Positions 7,041-14,273 of a DNA stretch of 64,000 nucleotides are shown piece by piece. Every line of letters starts with the position of its first letter. Position 1 is the first letter of the stretch. The position numbers were made by a program, and so were the translations under genes. This DNA is from a virus. Lineage: Duplodnaviria; Caudoviricetes. The stretch spans positions 96,001 to 160,000 of the IMG/VR virus record IMGVR_UViG_3300021254_000021. One strand, given 5' to 3'. The notes beneath the pieces are model-generated. The model was not told the DNA's origin. It worked only from the letters and a program-made list of their open reading frames with translations, and made no database searches.

Positions 7041-9494
7041 ATGGCTTATACACTATACCCTACACAGGAAAAGGCATTAGAGAAACTTTACACTATGAGA
7101 TCTGCGGTAATTGCTCTAATGCCTGGTAATGGCAAAACGATTATCTCTTTACATTTAGCAAAACACCTTCAAGATAAAGAAGCTGTCTGCACAATATTCT
7201 GTATTCCTAAATCAGCTAGGGCGGCGTTTGAAAAAGAGATGAAGCTAAAGTTGGAAGCTCCATACCTTATGATTAATACAGACAGTCCCTTAGAGGATCG
7301 ATCTCTCTTATATAAGTATTCCTTTATCTTTATCGAGTTTTCTGTCTTAGGCAATTATATTGATGATTTGGTTGAGCTAACTAAAGTAACTCCCTCTTAC
7401 ATATTCATAGATGAGGCTCATGCCTTATGTTCACCTAAATCAGCACAAACTACATACATGAGAATGATACGGCAGAATTGTAGAGGATGTTATGCTATTA
7501 GTGCTACCCCTTTAGTCACTTCTATAGAAGGATTGTTCCATCTTTACAGTTTTACTTTCCCAACTGTAAGAATATTTCAGTCTTGGTTTAAATTTCGTAA
7601 TCAATACTGCATTACGCAGGATAGAACCATAAGGATGATGGGGAAGAAAAGAATCATAAAAGAGATTGTTGGTTATAAGAATATGAAGGAGCTGAATGAT
7701 ATTCTGGATAAAATAACGATAAAAGGAGCTACTGAATATGATGTAGATTACCAATTTAAAAAAGTTCCATTAGATGATGATAGATTAGAGCAATATAAAC
7801 TAGCGGCTAAAGGATTATTGGTTACAGAGGAAGAGAAGGAGTGGGGGCCTCGACTTCATGATCTTCAACGTGTCGTAGATGGTTTGCCACAAAATGAAGA
7901 GCCTGTTAAGGAATACAATAAAACACGCTTACTATTAGACACTGTAAAAGAGATAATGGGTAGGAATGAAGCTACTCTTATTTATGTAGAATATATGGAC
8001 ACCATAGATTACTTAAAAGAGATACTAAGTAATCATAAGGATGAACTGAACTATAACTCTATTATGGTTTTGTCTGGTCAGGAAAAAGAGGACAAAAGAC
8101 AAAAGATTGAGCAGGAATTATCGGACAGGGATATTGTTATTATCACCAAAGCAGGAAGACAGTGTTTTGGTAAAGGAACAGAAATATTGATGGCAGATGG
8201 AACTATAAAGAAAGTGGAGGATATAATAGTAGGTGATCAGGTAATGGGAATGGACAGTAAACCTAGAGTAGTTAAGGAGTTACATTCAGGAATTGATGAT
8301 CTTTATATAGTACATCAAAATAAATCTAGTGATTATGTAGTAAATTCTGAGCATATTTTAAGTGTACGAAATACTATAAGATATAAAGTGAGGGTTAATA
8401 AAAATTCTTATTTACATCAAGATGTTTTGGACTTACCTATTAAGGAGTATATGAATCTTTCTTCTTATAAAAGAACGGTATTACGTGGATTTAAGACAGG
8501 TTTTTTAGGAGAAGAAAAAGATTTACCAATACCACCGTATATTTTAGGTATATGGTTAGGTGATGGTACGAAAAAACGTCCAGAAATAACCATAAATAAT
8601 AAGGATATAGAAATATATAATGAATGGAAATTTTATGGAGAATCTATTGGACTAGAAGCTACAATAGAAGATAAACGAGAGAAATCTTTTAGGAGTTATT
8701 TAACCTCACATATAAATGGAAAGACAAATCCATTTACACAATTAATAAAAAAAGTAATTGGAGAGGAAAAAAATATCCCTGAAATATATTTAACATCTTC
8801 ACGTAAACAAAGATTGGAGCTACTAGCAGGTTTGATTGATACAGATGGTAATAAGCATAGAGAAGGGTTAGCTATATCTAGTGTATTTCCACAAATAGCC
8901 TTTAGCATAAAGAGACTTTGTGATGGGTTAGGGTATCATACACACATAAAAAAAAGTTATAAAAAAACAGCATATAAAGAGTCGTATATTTATACTATAG
9001 GCATCTCCGGGTATTTTGATGATTTACCTCTTAGGATAAAAAGAAAGATTCCTGAAAAAAGAAATCCCAAAACGGACTATGCGGCTTCCTCTTTAAAGAT
9101 AGAATATAAAGGAGTTGGAGAATTTTATGGTTTTGAAATAGAAGGTGATCCACATTTTCAGTTAGCTGATGGAACTATTGTACATAATTCGAGAAATTTG
9201 CAAAGGTCGAATAACCTTATTATGTATAACATTCCTTATTCCTTATCCGACTTTATTCAATTATCAGGACGGATTTGTCGTGTAGATACCACCTTCGACA
9301 AACAACACTTTTACATCTTAGAGGTGGAGCAAACTATCGACTCTTATCGTATAGCACTCTTTAAGGATCATCTCTCTTTATTAGATCGTCTTTTAGGTAA
9401 AGAGTGTAGGGGAACATTAACCTGTGATTACGTAGAGATAGACCGTATGAAGATGAAAGATTTGAAACGGTCTTTATTATGGAGAACAAGATGA
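7041..9494 (+). CDS. superfamily 2 (SNF2-like/DEAH) helicase containing an intein
   Basis: Walker A MPGNGKT, DEAH, SATP; motif V restored after splicing (KAGRQ|SRNLQ); motif VI QLSGRICR. Confidence 0.9.
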   Translation: MAYTLYPTQEKALEKLYTMRSAVIALMPGNGKTIISLHLAKHLQDKEAVCTIFCIPKSARAAFEKEMKLKLEAPYLMINTDSPLEDRSLLYKYSFIFIEFSVLGNYIDDLVELTKVTPSYIFIDEAHALCSPKSAQTTYMRMIRQNCRGCYAISATPLVTSIEGLFHLYSFTFPTVRIFQSWFKFRNQYCITQDRTIRMMGKKRIIKEIVGYKNMKELNDILDKITIKGATEYDVDYQFKKVPLDDDRLEQYKLAAKGLLVTEEEKEWGPRLHDLQRVVDGLPQNEEPVKEYNKTRLLLDTVKEIMGRNEATLIYVEYMDTIDYLKEILSNHKDELNYNSIMVLSGQEKEDKRQKIEQELSDRDIVIITKAGRQCFGKGTEILMADGTIKKVEDIIVGDQVMGMDSKPRVVKELHSGIDDLYIVHQNKSSDYVVNSEHILSVRNTIRYKVRVNKNSYLHQDVLDLPIKEYMNLSSYKRTVLRGFKTGFLGEEKDLPIPPYILGIWLGDGTKKRPEITINNKDIEIYNEWKFYGESIGLEATIEDKREKSFRSYLTSHINGKTNPFTQLIKKVIGEEKNIPEIYLTSSRKQRLELLAGLIDTDGNKHREGLAISSVFPQIAFSIKRLCDGLGYHTHIKKSYKKTAYKESYIYTIGISGYFDDLPLRIKRKIPEKRNPKTDYAASSLKIEYKGVGEFYGFEIEGDPHFQLADGTIVHNSRNLQRSNNLIMYNIPYSLSDFIQLSGRICRVDTTFDKQHFYILEVEQTIDSYRIALFKDHLSLLDRLLGKECRGTLTCDYVEIDRMKMKDLKRSLLWRTR
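8163..9188 (+). mobile_element. intein with LAGLIDADG homing endonuclease (342 aa)
   Basis: Begins CFGKGTEILMADG and ends GTIVHN followed by Ser; blocks YILGIWLGDG and LLAGLIDTDG. Confidence 0.95.
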
Positions 9495-10864
9495 CAATAC
9501 CAGAGAATATTGTTCCTAGCCCAAAGGATGTCGGTACATTATTAGGTATATCAAAACTCTTTAATATAAATGATGATCCTTATAATAAGAAACTTACTAT
9601 GCTTTATAAGCAAGTAGGGAAAATGAGGGACATCTTTATCAAAGGCCCTAGTAAATCTGTTAAGAATATTCTTACTATGGATGAGAGTTGGGGCGAGCCT
9701 TTTGAAAAGACTAAAAGTAAGCTGATTGATAAAGGTGTCTATGCCTTTGTTACTAAGGCAGACGGTGAAGGAGCAACTATATGGGGTTTAATTCCAGATG
9801 ATTCTTTTTTAGGTGATAATGAGGCTAAAACACATTCTACTAAGAAAGTAAAGTTAGAGGATGATGGTGATGTCTCACAGCTTAATAAAGAAGCAGATAG
9901 AGAGTTAGCTGATAAGAATGCAGAGACAAATAAAACTAAAAACGATAAAGACAAAGAGGATGATGCGAAAGATGATGCAAGTAGAGAAGATCAATCTTCC
10001 TCTTTAGGGAAACTTACTAAGTTTAATAATACCGTTAAGGGAGATATTAAAGGCCGTCGATGGATGACCGCCTTTAATAATGCACAGAAAGAAATGCCTG
10101 TTGGTGAGAATGGACAGAAAGGAGCGCCTTTTGCCATAGCTTTTGTAGCCAGTTATACCGAGAACTCTATACCTTGGTTTGGTAAAGTAGCTTGGGGTGT
10201 AGCTGTAAAGAATGATGTTATCTCTTTAACACAGATTCCTTTAATGTTACAGGGTAATAAAGATCAATACTTTGTTTGGTCTTTCGTTGCTAAGATTCCT
10301 ATTACTGATTCAGAATTAACTGGTAAATTTGGTAAAGGTGGCGGGGAGTCTAATTATTCTAATTTTAAGAAACTCCGTGACTACCTTAATAAAGAATGTG
10401 AGCCATTAAATGAAAGGGGGGAATACTCTTTTGCTAAAGGTGGTGAGAAAACAACTCAGAGTCCAGATAAGAGTAAGTCTAGACCTGATGAGAAAGGTAA
10501 AGAGGACAGTAAAAACAAGACTGACACACAGAATAAGACTGATAATAAATCGGAAACAAACACTCAATCTAAAACAGACCCTTTACATGCCGCACAACAG
10601 AAATTAAATCAAACCAATACTCAATCAATCAACGACAGCTACATTCACTCTGTTACAGAGTCTATAGAAATAGCTCAATCCTTCTTAATGGATGAAACAT
10701 ATAGGATGTATGAATATAGTGGTTTTGGTAGAAGTAGTGACGACGATGACGGTAAAGCAGATGTTGGATCCGATAGAGCTACATTCCCGTCTGGATCTCC
10801 ATACTTAAATAAGATTAAGAACTCTGGGTATAATGAAGTGCCAATGTTAGGCCCCCTTTATTAA
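9479..10864 (+). CDS. hypothetical protein with low-complexity K/D/T/N linkers
   Basis: 461-aa ORF (likely start ATG 9491) followed by a terminator. Confidence 0.7.
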   Translation: MENKMTIPENIVPSPKDVGTLLGISKLFNINDDPYNKKLTMLYKQVGKMRDIFIKGPSKSVKNILTMDESWGEPFEKTKSKLIDKGVYAFVTKADGEGATIWGLIPDDSFLGDNEAKTHSTKKVKLEDDGDVSQLNKEADRELADKNAETNKTKNDKDKEDDAKDDASREDQSSSLGKLTKFNNTVKGDIKGRRWMTAFNNAQKEMPVGENGQKGAPFAIAFVASYTENSIPWFGKVAWGVAVKNDVISLTQIPLMLQGNKDQYFVWSFVAKIPITDSELTGKFGKGGGESNYSNFKKLRDYLNKECEPLNERGEYSFAKGGEKTTQSPDKSKSRPDEKGKEDSKNKTDTQNKTDNKSETNTQSKTDPLHAAQQKLNQTNTQSINDSYIHSVTESIEIAQSFLMDETYRMYEYSGFGRSSDDDDGKADVGSDRATFPSGSPYLNKIKNSGYNEVPMLGPLY

Positions 10865-10871
10865 GGATGTT

Positions 10872-10900
10872 AAGCTCCTCTTAATGAGGGGCTTTTCTTT
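10872..10900 (+). terminator. intrinsic terminator
   Basis: AAGCTCCTC-ttaat-GAGGGGCTT followed by T-tract. Confidence 0.8.
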
Positions 10901-11076
10901 TGCCTTAAAAAATAAAAGACTGTAAAGGTATTATGGTATAACCTTTTTAGGGGAGGTTAAATACTAGTATCATATTTATTAATATTTGTTAAATATTTTT
11001 AACTTTTTATACTTGATTTTTGTATAAAAAGTGAGTAAATTCTCTAATCAAGGAGGCGGCTTATGCCGATAGTCTT

Positions 11077-11670
11077 ATGTACTTACCTAGTCGTAAGGCT
11101 TGCCTTGAGTTGGGAGTCCATGCTAACACGCTGAGGAGATGGGCAGATGAAGGGAAAATTCGATACATCAGAACAGCAGGTGGTAAACGCCTCTATGACT
11201 GTTCCAGCGTCGAAGAAAATAGTAGCACGAAAAAGAACTACTGCTACTGTCGTGTCTCCTCGTCAAAGCAAAAAGACGACCTTGAAAGACAAGTCAGTTT
11301 TATGCAGTCAAGATACCCAGACTATACCATTCTCAAAGATGTTGGGTCTGGACTCAATTTCAAACGAAAGCAACTTATCTTCCTGCTTGAAGAATGTGCA
11401 ATGGGAAGAGTCGGAGAAGTTGTCGTTGCCTACAGAGACAGACTTTGTAGATTTGGATTTGAATTGCTTGAGTGGTTCTTCTCTAAAAACTCTGTTAAAC
11501 TCGTGGTTCTCGAACAACAAGAATTATCGCCTCAACAGGAGCTTGTTGCAGACTTGCTTTCCGTTATCACAGTGTTTTCATGTAGAGTTCACGGACTCAG
11601 AAAATACCGTACAGCGGTCAAGGAAGATAAGAGTTTATCCAAACAAGGAACAGAAGCAGATTTTGAATAA
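11077..11670 (+). CDS. tnpA: IS607 transposase TnpA (MerR-like HTH + serine recombinase)
   Basis: LGVHANTLRRWADEGKI HTH; YCRVSSSKQKDDLERQ catalytic Ser motif; DVGSGLNFKR; RDRLCRFGFEL. Confidence 0.95.
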   Translation: MYLPSRKACLELGVHANTLRRWADEGKIRYIRTAGGKRLYDCSSVEENSSTKKNYCYCRVSSSKQKDDLERQVSFMQSRYPDYTILKDVGSGLNFKRKQLIFLLEECAMGRVGEVVVAYRDRLCRFGFELLEWFFSKNSVKLVVLEQQELSPQQELVADLLSVITVFSCRVHGLRKYRTAVKEDKSLSKQGTEADFE

Positions 11671-12703
11671 TTGGTTTGGTGCTTCTAGGTTTGCTTATAA
11701 TAAAGCTGTAGCTTTTTTAAAGCAACCTAATACGAAAGCACAGTGGAAATCTATTAAGACTCCATTGTTGCATGAAATGCCTGAATGGTCAAAAGAAGTT
11801 CCTTATCAGATTAAATCTGTAGCAATTCGTGATTGTTGTCATGCTGTGTCTAATGCAAAAAAGAAATTCAAGCAGACTGGTAAATTTAACGAAGTCAGGT
11901 TTCGATCAAAGAAGCGCGGTGATAATAATTTATTTATCCCACAAAGTGCAGTTTCAAAGGATGGTGTTTATTACACTATCCTAGGTAAACTTAAGACGGC
12001 AGAACCTTTGTGGAAACCTAATCATGACTGCCGTATGTTTTTAGAGAATGGGCGTTATTTCGTCTCTATACCAAAAGATATTTTTGTAAAAAGACCTGAA
12101 AACCAAAGGCTTTCTGCATGTGCATTGGATTGTGGTGTTAGAACGTTCCAAACCGTTTTTTCTAAAGAACTTATTTTAAAAGTAGGCGAGCATGATTTCC
12201 AACGAATCTTTCGTTATTGCTATGCTTTAGACAAATTGGTTTCTCGAAAAAAGAAAGAGAAATCAAACAAGTTTAATAAAGCAATGCATAGAATCCGTTG
12301 GAGAGTCCATGATCTTATCGACGAAATCCATAATAAGCTAGCTTTAACGTTGTGTCGAATGTTTGATGTGATTTACATACCAATATTTGAGACACGGTAC
12401 ATGGTTTCAAAGTTGAAGCATAAGACATCCAGAGCAATGCTTGGGTGGGCACATTATCGCTTTAAAAAGAAACTTAAGTCTAAAGCAGAGGAGTATTCTT
12501 GTAAAGTTATTGATTGTACAGAAGAGTACACGTCAAAGACTTGTGGGAATTGTGGAGAGATAAGTTCGATTGGTGGAAAAGAAGTTTGGACGTGCAAACA
12601 CTGTGGTTGTGTACATGACAGAGATATAAACGGAGCAAGGAATATTCTGTTAAAGCAGTTATTTCTTGCGCTGAGAGATCCCTCCACACCTTGTTTGGTG
12701 TGA
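11147..12703 (+). CDS. tnpB: IS607 TnpB RNA-guided nuclease, Fanzor2/pro-Fanzor-like; true start uncertain (between 11147 and about 11570)
   Basis: KIRVYPNKEQ HTH; RuvC-I ALDCGVRTF; IYIPIFET; EEYTSKTCGNCG zinc finger; RuvC-III DRDINGARNI. Confidence 0.9.
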   Translation: MKGKFDTSEQQVVNASMTVPASKKIVARKRTTATVVSPRQSKKTTLKDKSVLCSQDTQTIPFSKMLGLDSISNESNLSSCLKNVQWEESEKLSLPTETDFVDLDLNCLSGSSLKTLLNSWFSNNKNYRLNRSLLQTCFPLSQCFHVEFTDSENTVQRSRKIRVYPNKEQKQILNNWFGASRFAYNKAVAFLKQPNTKAQWKSIKTPLLHEMPEWSKEVPYQIKSVAIRDCCHAVSNAKKKFKQTGKFNEVRFRSKKRGDNNLFIPQSAVSKDGVYYTILGKLKTAEPLWKPNHDCRMFLENGRYFVSIPKDIFVKRPENQRLSACALDCGVRTFQTVFSKELILKVGEHDFQRIFRYCYALDKLVSRKKKEKSNKFNKAMHRIRWRVHDLIDEIHNKLALTLCRMFDVIYIPIFETRYMVSKLKHKTSRAMLGWAHYRFKKKLKSKAEEYSCKVIDCTEEYTSKTCGNCGEISSIGGKEVWTCKHCGCVHDRDINGARNILLKQLFLALRDPSTPCLV

Positions 12704-12753
12704 TTTAATAGTAGCTATTAGTAATAATAGTGAATAAAAATGGATCGGCTTTT

Positions 12754-13293
12754 ATGGATAAAGAGAATGAGTTAAGTATACAGGATAAGAGACTTGTGAT
12801 GCGTATGGCTGATTTATGGCCTTTACAGGATAAACTGGTAAAGGAGATACCACAGATAAATGCCATCCCCGAGTTTTCCAAAGTAACCACCTTTATTACA
12901 CAAAGACCAATCTTACGGGAAGTAGCATTCTATTACCTGTACCATAATAAGGTTATAGATTATGTTAAGGTGTTTACGGCTGAGAATATTAAAGACATTT
13001 ATTTCCATGAGCATCCTGATTATAACTCCTTTTATGAAGTAGGTGTACCTATTGTGGTTATTCTGTTAGGTACGGAGATGTATAATCAGCAGATGATTAC
13101 GATCCTTAATTTGTTTTCAGACAACTTTCTGTCTAATGCAAATGCTAAAGCCTTAATCTTTTGCTTTGAAGGCAGTATGCAGGAATTTAAGAATAAATAT
13201 AAGAATGTCCAAGAAAGAGGCATTCTTAATACAGGTAAAACCTTTTCTTTAACCAAGACTTCTTTAAAGTCTAAGGACAAATTTGAAATGTAG
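12754..13293 (+). CDS. hypothetical protein (replication region)
   Basis: ORF; ATG 12754 lies just outside the IS607 right end (track start 12730 is inside the element). Confidence 0.7.
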   Translation: MDKENELSIQDKRLVMRMADLWPLQDKLVKEIPQINAIPEFSKVTTFITQRPILREVAFYYLYHNKVIDYVKVFTAENIKDIYFHEHPDYNSFYEVGVPIVVILLGTEMYNQQMITILNLFSDNFLSNANAKALIFCFEGSMQEFKNKYKNVQERGILNTGKTFSLTKTSLKSKDKFEM

Positions 13294-13301
13294 GAGAAAG
13301 T

Positions 13302-14273
13302 ATGAACAGAATTAACTTTTTAGAAAACAGGGATTTCCTTATTCACTCTACGGCAAGACCTTATGTAGTAGAGCCAGACCATTTGGTTAATCTTGAAATT
13401 ATGCAGGATATGACCATGCTTGTTACTACACAGCGCCAAGAAATCTTTGTTAAAGAGACACCCTTTAAATCCTCTGTTTTACCTATATTGGGGATTACTG
13501 GTTTATTAAAGAAAAAGATGATTGATGGAGAGTCCGCTACTTTAACAGACTCTTTATTAGATTTAATCACACCCATAATGAAGCAGAATATTCAGTCCTT
13601 CATTTTCTTTTTGGACACGGACGAAAAAGAGGCAATCGCTGTCTTTGTTACACCCGTCTTTGATAAGCTCGAACCAGTAACCTTACATAATGGTTATAGT
13701 AATCTTAAACAGTTTTTATGCACTTCATATTTCCCAGTAGAGGAAGATAAAGATTATCATGTTATAGACTTTAACCATGAGCCTAAAGATAAAATCTTTA
13801 AATTAAACTTGGCTCATAAAGATGATCAAACAAAAGAATTTTATCCTATTATTCATAATAATGCACCGATAGCATGGAAAGAGAATTGGGATCAGCGTGC
13901 GTCTATTTATGACAGGGAAAGAGATTTATACATGACCTTACCTAGAAACTATGGTAAGGGTGGGTATAAGGTAGTGGATAAGATTATTCAGCATATAGAC
14001 CACATGATTTCTAAACTGGATATTACACAAGATTACGACAAAGAGTTTAATGAAATGCTAATGGCCAAGTTACCCAATAAGGGTATTGAATATATGATGG
14101 AAGCCTCTTTTGAGGATCATAAATTAGTAACCATCTTAGATAAAATATCATCATCTAAAGAGGATTTAAAGCCATCCGTCGTTCATGCGTTATATAAATG
14201 TTTAGGGTACATGGTAGCTCAAAAATTACATTGCTGTCCTGAATGCAGACATCTCGACGAGGAAACACTTTAA
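13302..14273 (+). CDS. hypothetical protein with C-terminal CxxC
   Basis: 323-aa ORF with AGGAG SD; ends HCCPECRH. Confidence 0.7.
   Translation: MNRINFLENRDFLIHSTARPYVVEPDHLVNLEIMQDMTMLVTTQRQEIFVKETPFKSSVLPILGITGLLKKKMIDGESATLTDSLLDLITPIMKQNIQSFIFFLDTDEKEAIAVFVTPVFDKLEPVTLHNGYSNLKQFLCTSYFPVEEDKDYHVIDFNHEPKDKIFKLNLAHKDDQTKEFYPIIHNNAPIAWKENWDQRASIYDRERDLYMTLPRNYGKGGYKVVDKIIQHIDHMISKLDITQDYDKEFNEMLMAKLPNKGIEYMMEASFEDHKLVTILDKISSSKEDLKPSVVHALYKCLGYMVAQKLHCCPECRHLDEETL

Follow-up and report, generated by a model that had tools for sequence, protein, structure and literature searches.

The stretch analysed here (hereafter the window) spans 64,000 nucleotides (nt) of a virus of the Caudoviricetes (Duplodnaviria), positions 96,001 to 160,000 of the IMG/VR record IMGVR_UViG_3300021254_000021, a 252,372-bp genome with an estimated completeness of 94%, and holds at 10957-12748 (plus strand, as for all features of the element below) an intact IS607-family insertion sequence of ~1792 bp that carries the serine recombinase gene tnpA and a gene, tnpB, whose predicted RNA-guided nuclease product has an N-terminal extension encoded inside tnpA in another reading frame. 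The limits of the element were read from copies in other contexts: the close-range comparisons comprise the window and three copies elsewhere (L006, L007, and L008; 84-85% nucleotide identity), with which similarity begins directly after a shared GG (10955-10956) and ends exactly at ...ATGGATCGG, the limit on the right, 12748, being the last base of ...AAAAATGGATCGG. GG bounds the element on both sides (AGG at 10954-10956 in the left flank, CGG at 12746-12748 at the right end), and the junctions read ...AGG/TTAAAT on the left and ...ATCGG/CTTTT on the right. Elements of the IS607 family have neither terminal inverted repeats nor target duplications. The tnpA gene (11077-11670) codes for 197 amino acids (aa) that combine a MerR-type helix-turn-helix (HTH) with a resolvase catalytic domain (Pfam PF00239, 2.4e-16, with PF00376 and PF12728) and match a PHROG transposase (6.5e-51); this domain composition and the GG at both junctions are those of the IS607 family, in which recombination takes place at GG (PMC10711439). 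A scan with a 16-nt right-end pattern gave matches mostly by chance and was not used.

The tnpB product matches the Pfam domains HTH_OrfB_IS605, OrfB_IS605 (below the cut-off), and the Cas12f1-like TNB zinc ribbon, and the frame ending at 12703 holds all the motifs quoted in an earlier reading of this DNA (the original prediction), namely ALDCGVRTFQT, RPENQ, DVIYIPIFET, RAMLGWAHYRFK, TEEYTSKTCGNCG, and DRDINGARNILL. That reading had placed a Pro at the usual position of the RuvC-II Glu and Glu residues just ahead of the zinc finger, and HMMER alignments to solved structures agree with both placements. Specifically, Pro412 (12380-12382; 518-aa numbering), the Pro of IYIPIFE, aligns with the catalytic Glu of ISDra2 TnpB (GTEHL) and with a Gly in the mimivirus Fanzor2 L79, and the position is Pro in 144 of the top 150 representatives of the family. 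The alternative RuvC-II Glu, E459 (12521-12523), is the first Glu of TEEY, lies six residues ahead of the first CxxC of a C4 zinc finger (CGNC...CKHC, 12542-12604; PF07282, 8.7e-21), and aligns with the Glu of NEYLTTKTC in L79, which is E467 (PMC10530073, PMC11832414); it is present in 146/146 aligned representative rows, and at the position of E460, the second Glu of TEEY, the representatives mostly have Ala. The RuvC-I Asp D328 (12128-12130), in LDCG, aligns with IDPG of L79, whose Asp is D324 (PMC11832414), and the RuvC-III Asp D493 (12623-12625), the second Asp of DRD, aligns by residue counting along the HMMER alignment with the second Asp of the L79 DRD, which is D501 (PMC11832414); both positions are invariant in the family alignments. 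In the cryo-electron microscopy (cryo-EM) structure of mimivirus Fanzor2 the triad is D324/E467/D501 (PMC11832414), and the predicted catalytic triad of the 518-aa TnpB is D328, E459, and D493. Such a relocated-Glu site was named "rearranged" by Jiang et al. (PMC10530073), and the Glu itself, six residues before CxxC, was named Ealt (PMC10711439). It is very improbable that the active site is canonical and that E415, the Glu of IFE three residues past the Pro, is the RuvC-II catalytic residue: E415 adjoins the canonical position and is nearly invariant in close homologues, but mimivirus Fanzor2, whose triad includes E467 (PMC11832414), has Asn there, and among the representatives the position is Glu in only 87/150, the remainder having N, D, S, G, K, R, or Q, whereas E459 is invariant. 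A catalytic Glu near IYIPIFE was also the case that the original prediction had set against itself, and the same counts (87/150 vs 146/146) speak against it. In many members of the clade (P0127, P0131, P0149, P0157, and others) the first zinc-finger CxxC is lost (TSKTVSWTG, TSKTNSFNG) and the three catalytic acidic residues are kept.

The core of TnpB (WED, REC, RuvC, and zinc finger; 360 aa, 11621-12703) was modelled with AlphaFold2 at a predicted local distance difference test (pLDDT) score of 90.5, and the WED/REC/RuvC fold stands beside the triad residues and the zinc finger as the set of features, read from sequence and model, that TnpB/OMEGA nucleases share. The top Foldseek matches of this model are mimivirus Fanzor2 (9b0l_P; 1.4e-20, TM 0.76), then ISDra2 TnpB (8h1j; 5.7e-17); the sequence search against solved structures also ranks 9b0l_P best (6.8e-28; ISDra2 TnpB, 1.3e-16), the family profile matches Fanzor2 9b0l at 6.8e-62, with an AI-designed nuclease as the next-best chain (4.3e-29) and ISDra2 TnpB at 2.5e-18, and VIA-align superposes 402 residues of the 518-aa model on 9b0l with a Z of 27.0. 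A search with a typed L79 peptide returned a Megavirus Fanzor2 locus without tnpA (L087) and six canonical TnpBs, which are not relevant here. Two trees were built (FastTree, 136 rows; IQ-TREE quick, 69 rows, rooted on canonical-Glu TnpBs), both by fast methods that do not settle the deep order within the clade. In both, canonical-Glu and relocated-Glu proteins split at 100% support, and the window TnpB, which does not group with the canonical-Glu TnpBs, lies inside a bacterial and phage clade of 99-100% support that includes the cyanobacterial pro-Fanzors. Alignment, profile search, fold, and phylogeny agree on the kernel of the original prediction, an IS607-linked TnpB with the Glu arrangement of Fanzor2 and pro-Fanzors, and by analogy with characterised relatives the protein is very probably an RNA-guided nuclease of the relocated-Glu lineage (Ealt, TnpB2, pro-Fanzor), which includes Fanzor2. 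In the IQ-TREE quick tree (LG+G4, fast, with weak backbone support) the giant-virus Fanzor2 rows are basal and the prokaryote and phage pro-Fanzors form a 99% crown clade, the opposite of the simplest prokaryote-to-eukaryote picture.

As to the named groups, the window TnpB belongs to the pro-Fanzors of Yoon et al. (2023) by descent and falls outside them by the DPG motif definition; the pattern ExxxxxxCxxC is present as E-EYTSKT-CGNC with Pro, not Glu, at the canonical site, an IS607 serine-recombinase TnpA is co-encoded, and the carrier is a phage genome instead of a cyanobacterial host. A phage genome is likewise not the eukaryote or eukaryotic virus from which a Fanzor2 comes, and the protein would work like Fanzor2 but is not a Fanzor2. 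RuvC-I reads DPG in 147/150 representatives and DCG in 1/150. The original prediction was right that DCG stands here in place of DPG; the state is limited to the window TnpB and its closest relatives and the next branches (P0120, P0115, and P0121) have DPG, therefore DCG is a recent Pro-to-Cys change within a DPG clade and carries no deep evolutionary signal. The clade itself is not mostly cyanobacterial, contrary to what had been supposed. An exhaustive search of 1.84 billion cluster representatives returned 1050 that match at E < 1e-30, from many phyla, phage-like contigs, and giant viruses. Relatives of 36-50% identity were found in, among others, Candidatus Uabimicrobium, Desulfobacterales, Latescibacteria, Poribacteria, Dehalococcoidia, and SAR202, the cyanobacteria Lyngbya, Moorena, Oscillatoria, Scytonema, Spirulina, and Dapis, and also Allochromatium, Thiomargarita, and a Synergistaceae metagenome-assembled genome (MAG) from goat abomasum, while Campylobacterota and a Woesearchaeota MAG stand at 30-31%; the relocated-Glu signature occurs in Planctomycetota, Desulfobacterota, Chloroflexota, Poribacteria, Latescibacteria, Pseudomonadota, Synergistota, an archaeal MAG, and many viral contigs. 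In the viral collection, at least 496 of at least 573 pattern-matching stretches encode relatives, which sit on phage-sized contigs, giant-virus MAGs, and one 344,691-bp record. This breadth contradicts the published statement that pro-Fanzors are exclusively cyanobacterial. Some rearranged RuvC-II branches were already reported to be enriched in viruses by Altae-Tran et al. (PMC10691335), and given this and the width of the clade the phage copy adds a member to a known group, and the widening of the clade first proposed for it was overstated.

The gene is about 140 codons longer than in the original prediction, which had it start at 11560 and thus code for about 380 aa. Position 11560 is not a start codon and has no ATG or GTG nearby; the only starts close to it, TTG 11543 and TTG 11546, both lack a Shine-Dalgarno sequence, and going upstream from the conserved core (RKIRVYP, from 11621) the first ATG or GTG is the ATG at 11147. 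The open frame starts at 11135, and the full tnpB open reading frame (ORF) of 518 aa (11147-12703) begins with an ATG 8 nt downstream of an internal Shine-Dalgarno sequence, GAGGAG (11133-11138; 11133-11149 with the ATG), which is built from the tnpA Arg-Arg codons AGG AGA. A 23-codon leader ORF in the tnpB frame (11063-11134, stop TGA at 11132-11134) follows the strongest Shine-Dalgarno sequence of the element (AGGAGG, 11051-11056), its ATG lying 14 nt upstream of the tnpA ATG, and in 51/120 close homologues this leader ATG opens an unbroken 546-aa tnpB within which the whole tnpA gene lies in a different frame; for most close homologues, the length assigned by gene callers is 518 or 546 aa. 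Among diverged loci, 35/63 have a +1-frame ATG at +64, +70, or +73 relative to the tnpA start, and the conserved +1-frame ATG mostly follows AGGAG or AGGAA made from tnpA Arg codons. In the window, these signals suggest ATG 11147 as the probable translation start. The nuclease announced as compact and new is of the lineage claimed for it; it is less compact, with 518 aa and an extension overprinted on tnpA.

The overlap with tnpA (11147-11670) takes up the first 524 nt of the tnpB ORF, and nowhere in the 252-kb genome does an alternative frame stay open for longer; the extension proper, recognised by frame, conservation, and profile, comprises ~158 codons (11147-11620) in the +1 frame of tnpA. 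Across 44 metagenome loci in which tnpA is complete (TnpA identity 41-100%), an open +1 frame of 120-241 codons occurs without exception, compared with 1-70 codons in the +2 frame, and shuffling the synonymous codons of tnpA shows the openness of the +1 frame to be mostly at P < 0.001 per locus. More widely, of 130 non-duplicate loci in which a full tnpA lies upstream, 127 place tnpB in the +1 frame and have an open overlap of at least 300 nt, and giant-virus loci, including the 344,691-bp record, have a +1 tnpA overlap of 534-633 nt. The extension aligns across proteins of 31-92% identity with the motifs P[FY]W, LWLP, and S-W-F (codons 11501-11509 in the window), of which the Trp and Phe of S-W-F are invariant, and the tnpA codons beneath W-F are NTG in 58/58 loci, GTT in 56/58, and CTC in 52/58, so that their synonymous positions are essentially fixed. 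Moreover, when loci are compared in pairs, the 4-fold sites of tnpA show about half the divergence of those in the tnpB core, which lies outside the overlap (0.21 vs 0.41-0.43 for the window against L006 and L007). Where tnpA is decayed or absent, its frame carries 2-20 stops, but the extension keeps its motifs and an open run of 86-134 codons, and it also persists in four giant-virus loci whose tnpA is on the opposite strand. At the level of sequence comparison, these patterns demonstrate that the overlap is under selection as double coding, and translation of the extension is well supported by them. A programmed frameshift yielding a TnpA-TnpB fusion can be discarded, since the +1 frame opens at about tnpA codon 20, has its own ATG, and persists without tnpA. 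The tnpA-tnpB overlap is not described in PMC10711439, PMC10530073, PMC11832414, PMC3627910, PMC10691335, or PMC11061315, and is not mentioned in the titles and abstracts returned by targeted literature searches.

Some observations run counter to a translated and structured extension. Two near-identical Uabimicrobium copies (L137 and L138), which share 50% identity with the window core, have a tnpA that lies clear of tnpB, and they lack the extension; both appear to have moved recently, so not every member needs an extension, which suggests that it is dispensable or replaced in that lineage. In the AlphaFold model of the 518-aa protein, residues 1-111 and 130-151 are of low confidence or disordered, and the helix and strand around SWF (112-129) reach a pLDDT of only ~70. 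Together with the habit of prokaryotic gene callers of taking the longest ORF by default, these points could be read as an untranslated extension, in which case TnpB would start near its core (TTG 11543, TTG 11546, or a non-standard codon) and the open frame would be a by-product of tnpA composition. This is quite unlikely: synonymous shuffles of tnpA seldom keep the +1 frame open, the tnpA codons under SWF are frozen in 58 loci, the frame with PxW, LWLP, and SWF stays open where tnpA has 2-20 stops, is absent, or is inverted, the TTGs have no Shine-Dalgarno sequence, and the extension aligns to a domain that is resolved in the Fanzor2 cryo-EM structure.

This alignment bears on what the translated extension would do. 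The N-terminal domain of Fanzor2 has been described as unique to that eukaryotic-virus enzyme; within it, RuvC-R (65-91) completes the RuvC fold, Asn82 and Ser83 touch the pseudoknot of the omega RNA, and a basic "thumb" (109-130) clasps the target DNA (PMC11832414). The long-form profile alignment starts at L79 residue 73 (to 130 within the extension) and lays SWF on the L79 N-S-W-Y, and VIA-align lays residues 77-515 of the model on 53-518 of the 9b0l chain, whereas TnpB structures align only from residue 153. By profile and structural alignment, with moderate model confidence, an N-terminal domain with RuvC-R is thus present, and the SWF of the extension would correspond to the RuvC-R of Fanzor2. 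The Fanzor2 N-terminal domain appears to be overprinted on tnpA and to be one that the prokaryotic lineage either passed on or has in common with Fanzor2. In all likelihood it is an old feature of the whole prokaryotic pro-Fanzor lineage, kept in bacteria, phages, and giant viruses alike as ~520 nt of double coding on the same strand, and it arose probably by overprinting. Two further loci show other arrangements of the same parts. L014 and L015 have TnpAs that are 98% identical and TnpB cores that are 68% identical, a contrast that suggests modular exchange between the part made of tnpA plus extension and the nuclease core, and in L168, a Dehalococcoidia MAG, tnpB and tnpA lie in one frame, as an in-frame TnpA-TnpB fusion or an assembly frameshift.

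At the other end of tnpB, conservation, a covariance model, and folding delimit a guide-RNA (reRNA or omega RNA) scaffold of at least the 3' 125 nt (12625-12749), in which the final 79 nt of tnpB are followed by 45 non-coding nt of the right end and by one base of the flank. Identity among the copies is 94-95% over these 125 nt vs ~85% for the whole element, and the covariance model R1, built from the copies, recovers this RNA at the tnpB 3' end in 32 loci that range from phages to Lyngbya and Thiomargarita. In the alignment of these loci, which was fitted to the covariance model and so somewhat favours the structure, 88.8% of cells are paired and compensatory changes occur in 32/42 pairs, with a covariation score of 0.467 vs 0.07-0.10 when the partners are slid; the folding z-score is -3.1. 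An Rfam scan of 10500-13500 at E up to 1 gave no match, which rules out RAGATH-18 or another curated Rfam family. A structured scaffold with covariation and readable element ends are shown by the aligned loci and copies. The architecture of IS607 reRNA is known from ISXfa1 (PMC10711439), and if the first flanking base belongs to the scaffold, as it does there, the predicted guide would be TTTTATGGATAAAGAGAATG (12750-12769), a segment that includes the start codon (12754) of the phage gene downstream. The left junctions of the three copies read GAGG, GAGG, and AGGG and suggest RGG as a candidate target-adjacent motif (TAM). In the window, the left flank GGGGAGG (10950-10956) holds this candidate and is also the probable Shine-Dalgarno sequence of the phage gene that starts at 12754: rejoined in silico, the flanks read GGGGAGG-CTTTT-ATG, therefore the element would separate the Shine-Dalgarno sequence from the start codon of that gene.

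Taken together, the locus is very likely to be an intact IS607 element with a TnpA and a 518-aa relocated-Glu TnpB bearing an overprinted extension. In the mechanism proposed for it, TnpA would move the element as double-stranded DNA, with excision and insertion by crossover at GG, and the 518-aa TnpB would be translated from ATG 11147, its first ~158 residues from the +1 frame of tnpA. The tnpB transcript would fold at its 3' end into the scaffold that stops at the right end of the element, read-through into the flank would supply the guide, and, by analogy with characterised TnpB and Fanzor2, the TnpB-RNA complex would cut genomes with an empty site (RGG followed by the flank). In a recombination-proficient phage, the break would then be repaired from an occupied copy, by which the element would be restored or retained and might spread during co-infection. 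A few points tell against parts of this account. Nuclease activity, TAM, guide length, and a homing role are predictions by analogy, and the rarity of DCG at RuvC-I (1/150 representatives) leaves the predicted activity uncertain. The rejoined flank sequence has no exact match, and the downstream phage protein no relatives, in viral contigs, therefore no empty site is available there and the left boundary and the TAM rest on the three junctions. The rarity of DCG, the single copy of the element in the phage genome, and the existence of nuclease-dead TnpB derivatives (PMC10691335) would also fit a decaying or repurposed TnpB that binds RNA without cutting, disabled by the Pro-to-Cys change at RuvC-I. 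Such a state is improbable, since all three acidic residues and the four zinc-finger Cys are intact, DCG is common to homologues in many metagenomes (intact ORFs, 85-94% identity), and copies stand in differing genomic contexts and therefore were recently mobile.

If the N-terminal domain is indeed old and overprinted, the phage enzyme has 518 aa and core-only constructs of the lineage may be crippled. The functional gene would include a domain hidden inside tnpA, one that contacts the guide RNA in the one solved structure and that short-ORF annotations used for editors or for Fanzor evolution would miss. Moreover, double coding would couple the evolution of transposase and nuclease codon by codon, giving a concrete handle on their co-evolution. 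The lineage from which the eukaryotic Fanzors arose extends far beyond the cyanobacteria to which the literature assigns it; phages commonly carry it and are plausible agents of its dispersal.

The remaining features of the locus concern its surroundings. A promoter-like site (TTGTTA-16-TATACT, 10986-11013), found by consensus scan and a consensus match only, precedes tnpA within the element. The genes around the element are phage replication genes, with PHROG matches to a helicase and a DnaB-like helicase. The ORF at 7041-9494 codes for an 817-aa helicase whose residues 1-360 match helicase PHROGs and which has a ~290-residue insert (about 370-660) matching intein-typical parts of terminase and primase PHROGs; judging from these matches, it is probably an intein-containing SNF2-type helicase. 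Outside the window, the phage genome has further TnpB genes at 92743-93849 (minus strand), 184663-184932 (minus strand), and 240060-240724 (plus strand), two of which have the canonical RuvC-II Glu (ICLEDL, VLENLKG), while the third is broken into two fragments. A megablast search of 10000-14000 against the phage collection gave no match.

Among known systems, ISDra2 TnpB (8h1j, 8exa), the reference TnpB of IS200/IS605, has the same core fold (Z 25, root-mean-square deviation 3.2 over 336 residues), a zinc finger, and, like the window element, a guide-RNA scaffold whose sequence overlaps the gene at its 3' end; unlike the window TnpB, it has its Glu at the canonical site (GTEHL), is paired with a Y1 transposase, and lacks an N-terminal extension, and its structural alignment begins only at residue 153 of the 518-aa model. 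The cyanobacterial pro-Fanzors (Yoon et al. 2023, PMC10711439) are closer: they fall in the same clade in both trees and share the Glu arrangement, the serine-recombinase partner, and the RNA family at the 3' end, and those of Lyngbya, Moorena, Oscillatoria, and Scytonema have the same +1 overprinted extension with SWF. The window TnpB differs from them in identity (43-47%), in DCG instead of DPG, and in being phage-borne. The best match in sequence, profile, and fold is the mimivirus Fanzor2 (ApmFz2, L79, PDB 9b0l; PMC11832414, PMC10530073), from which the window TnpB differs in several respects: identity is only 21-23%, RuvC-I is DCG instead of DPG, the host is a bacteriophage, in which no nuclear localisation signal is expected, instead of a eukaryotic virus, and the RNA scaffold modelled here has 125 nt against 205 nt. 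In the profile alignment, the TAM-reading Arg194 and His215 of ApmFz2 are Lys and Gln in the window TnpB, therefore the TAM may differ; the candidate RGG is close to the GGG of ISXfa1 and ApmFz2. In spite of this distance, the two proteins are of nearly the same length (520 aa in ApmFz2, 518 aa here), both stand in an IS607 context, both have the relocated RuvC-II Glu at the same aligned position, and both have an N-terminal extension with the motif NSW[YF].

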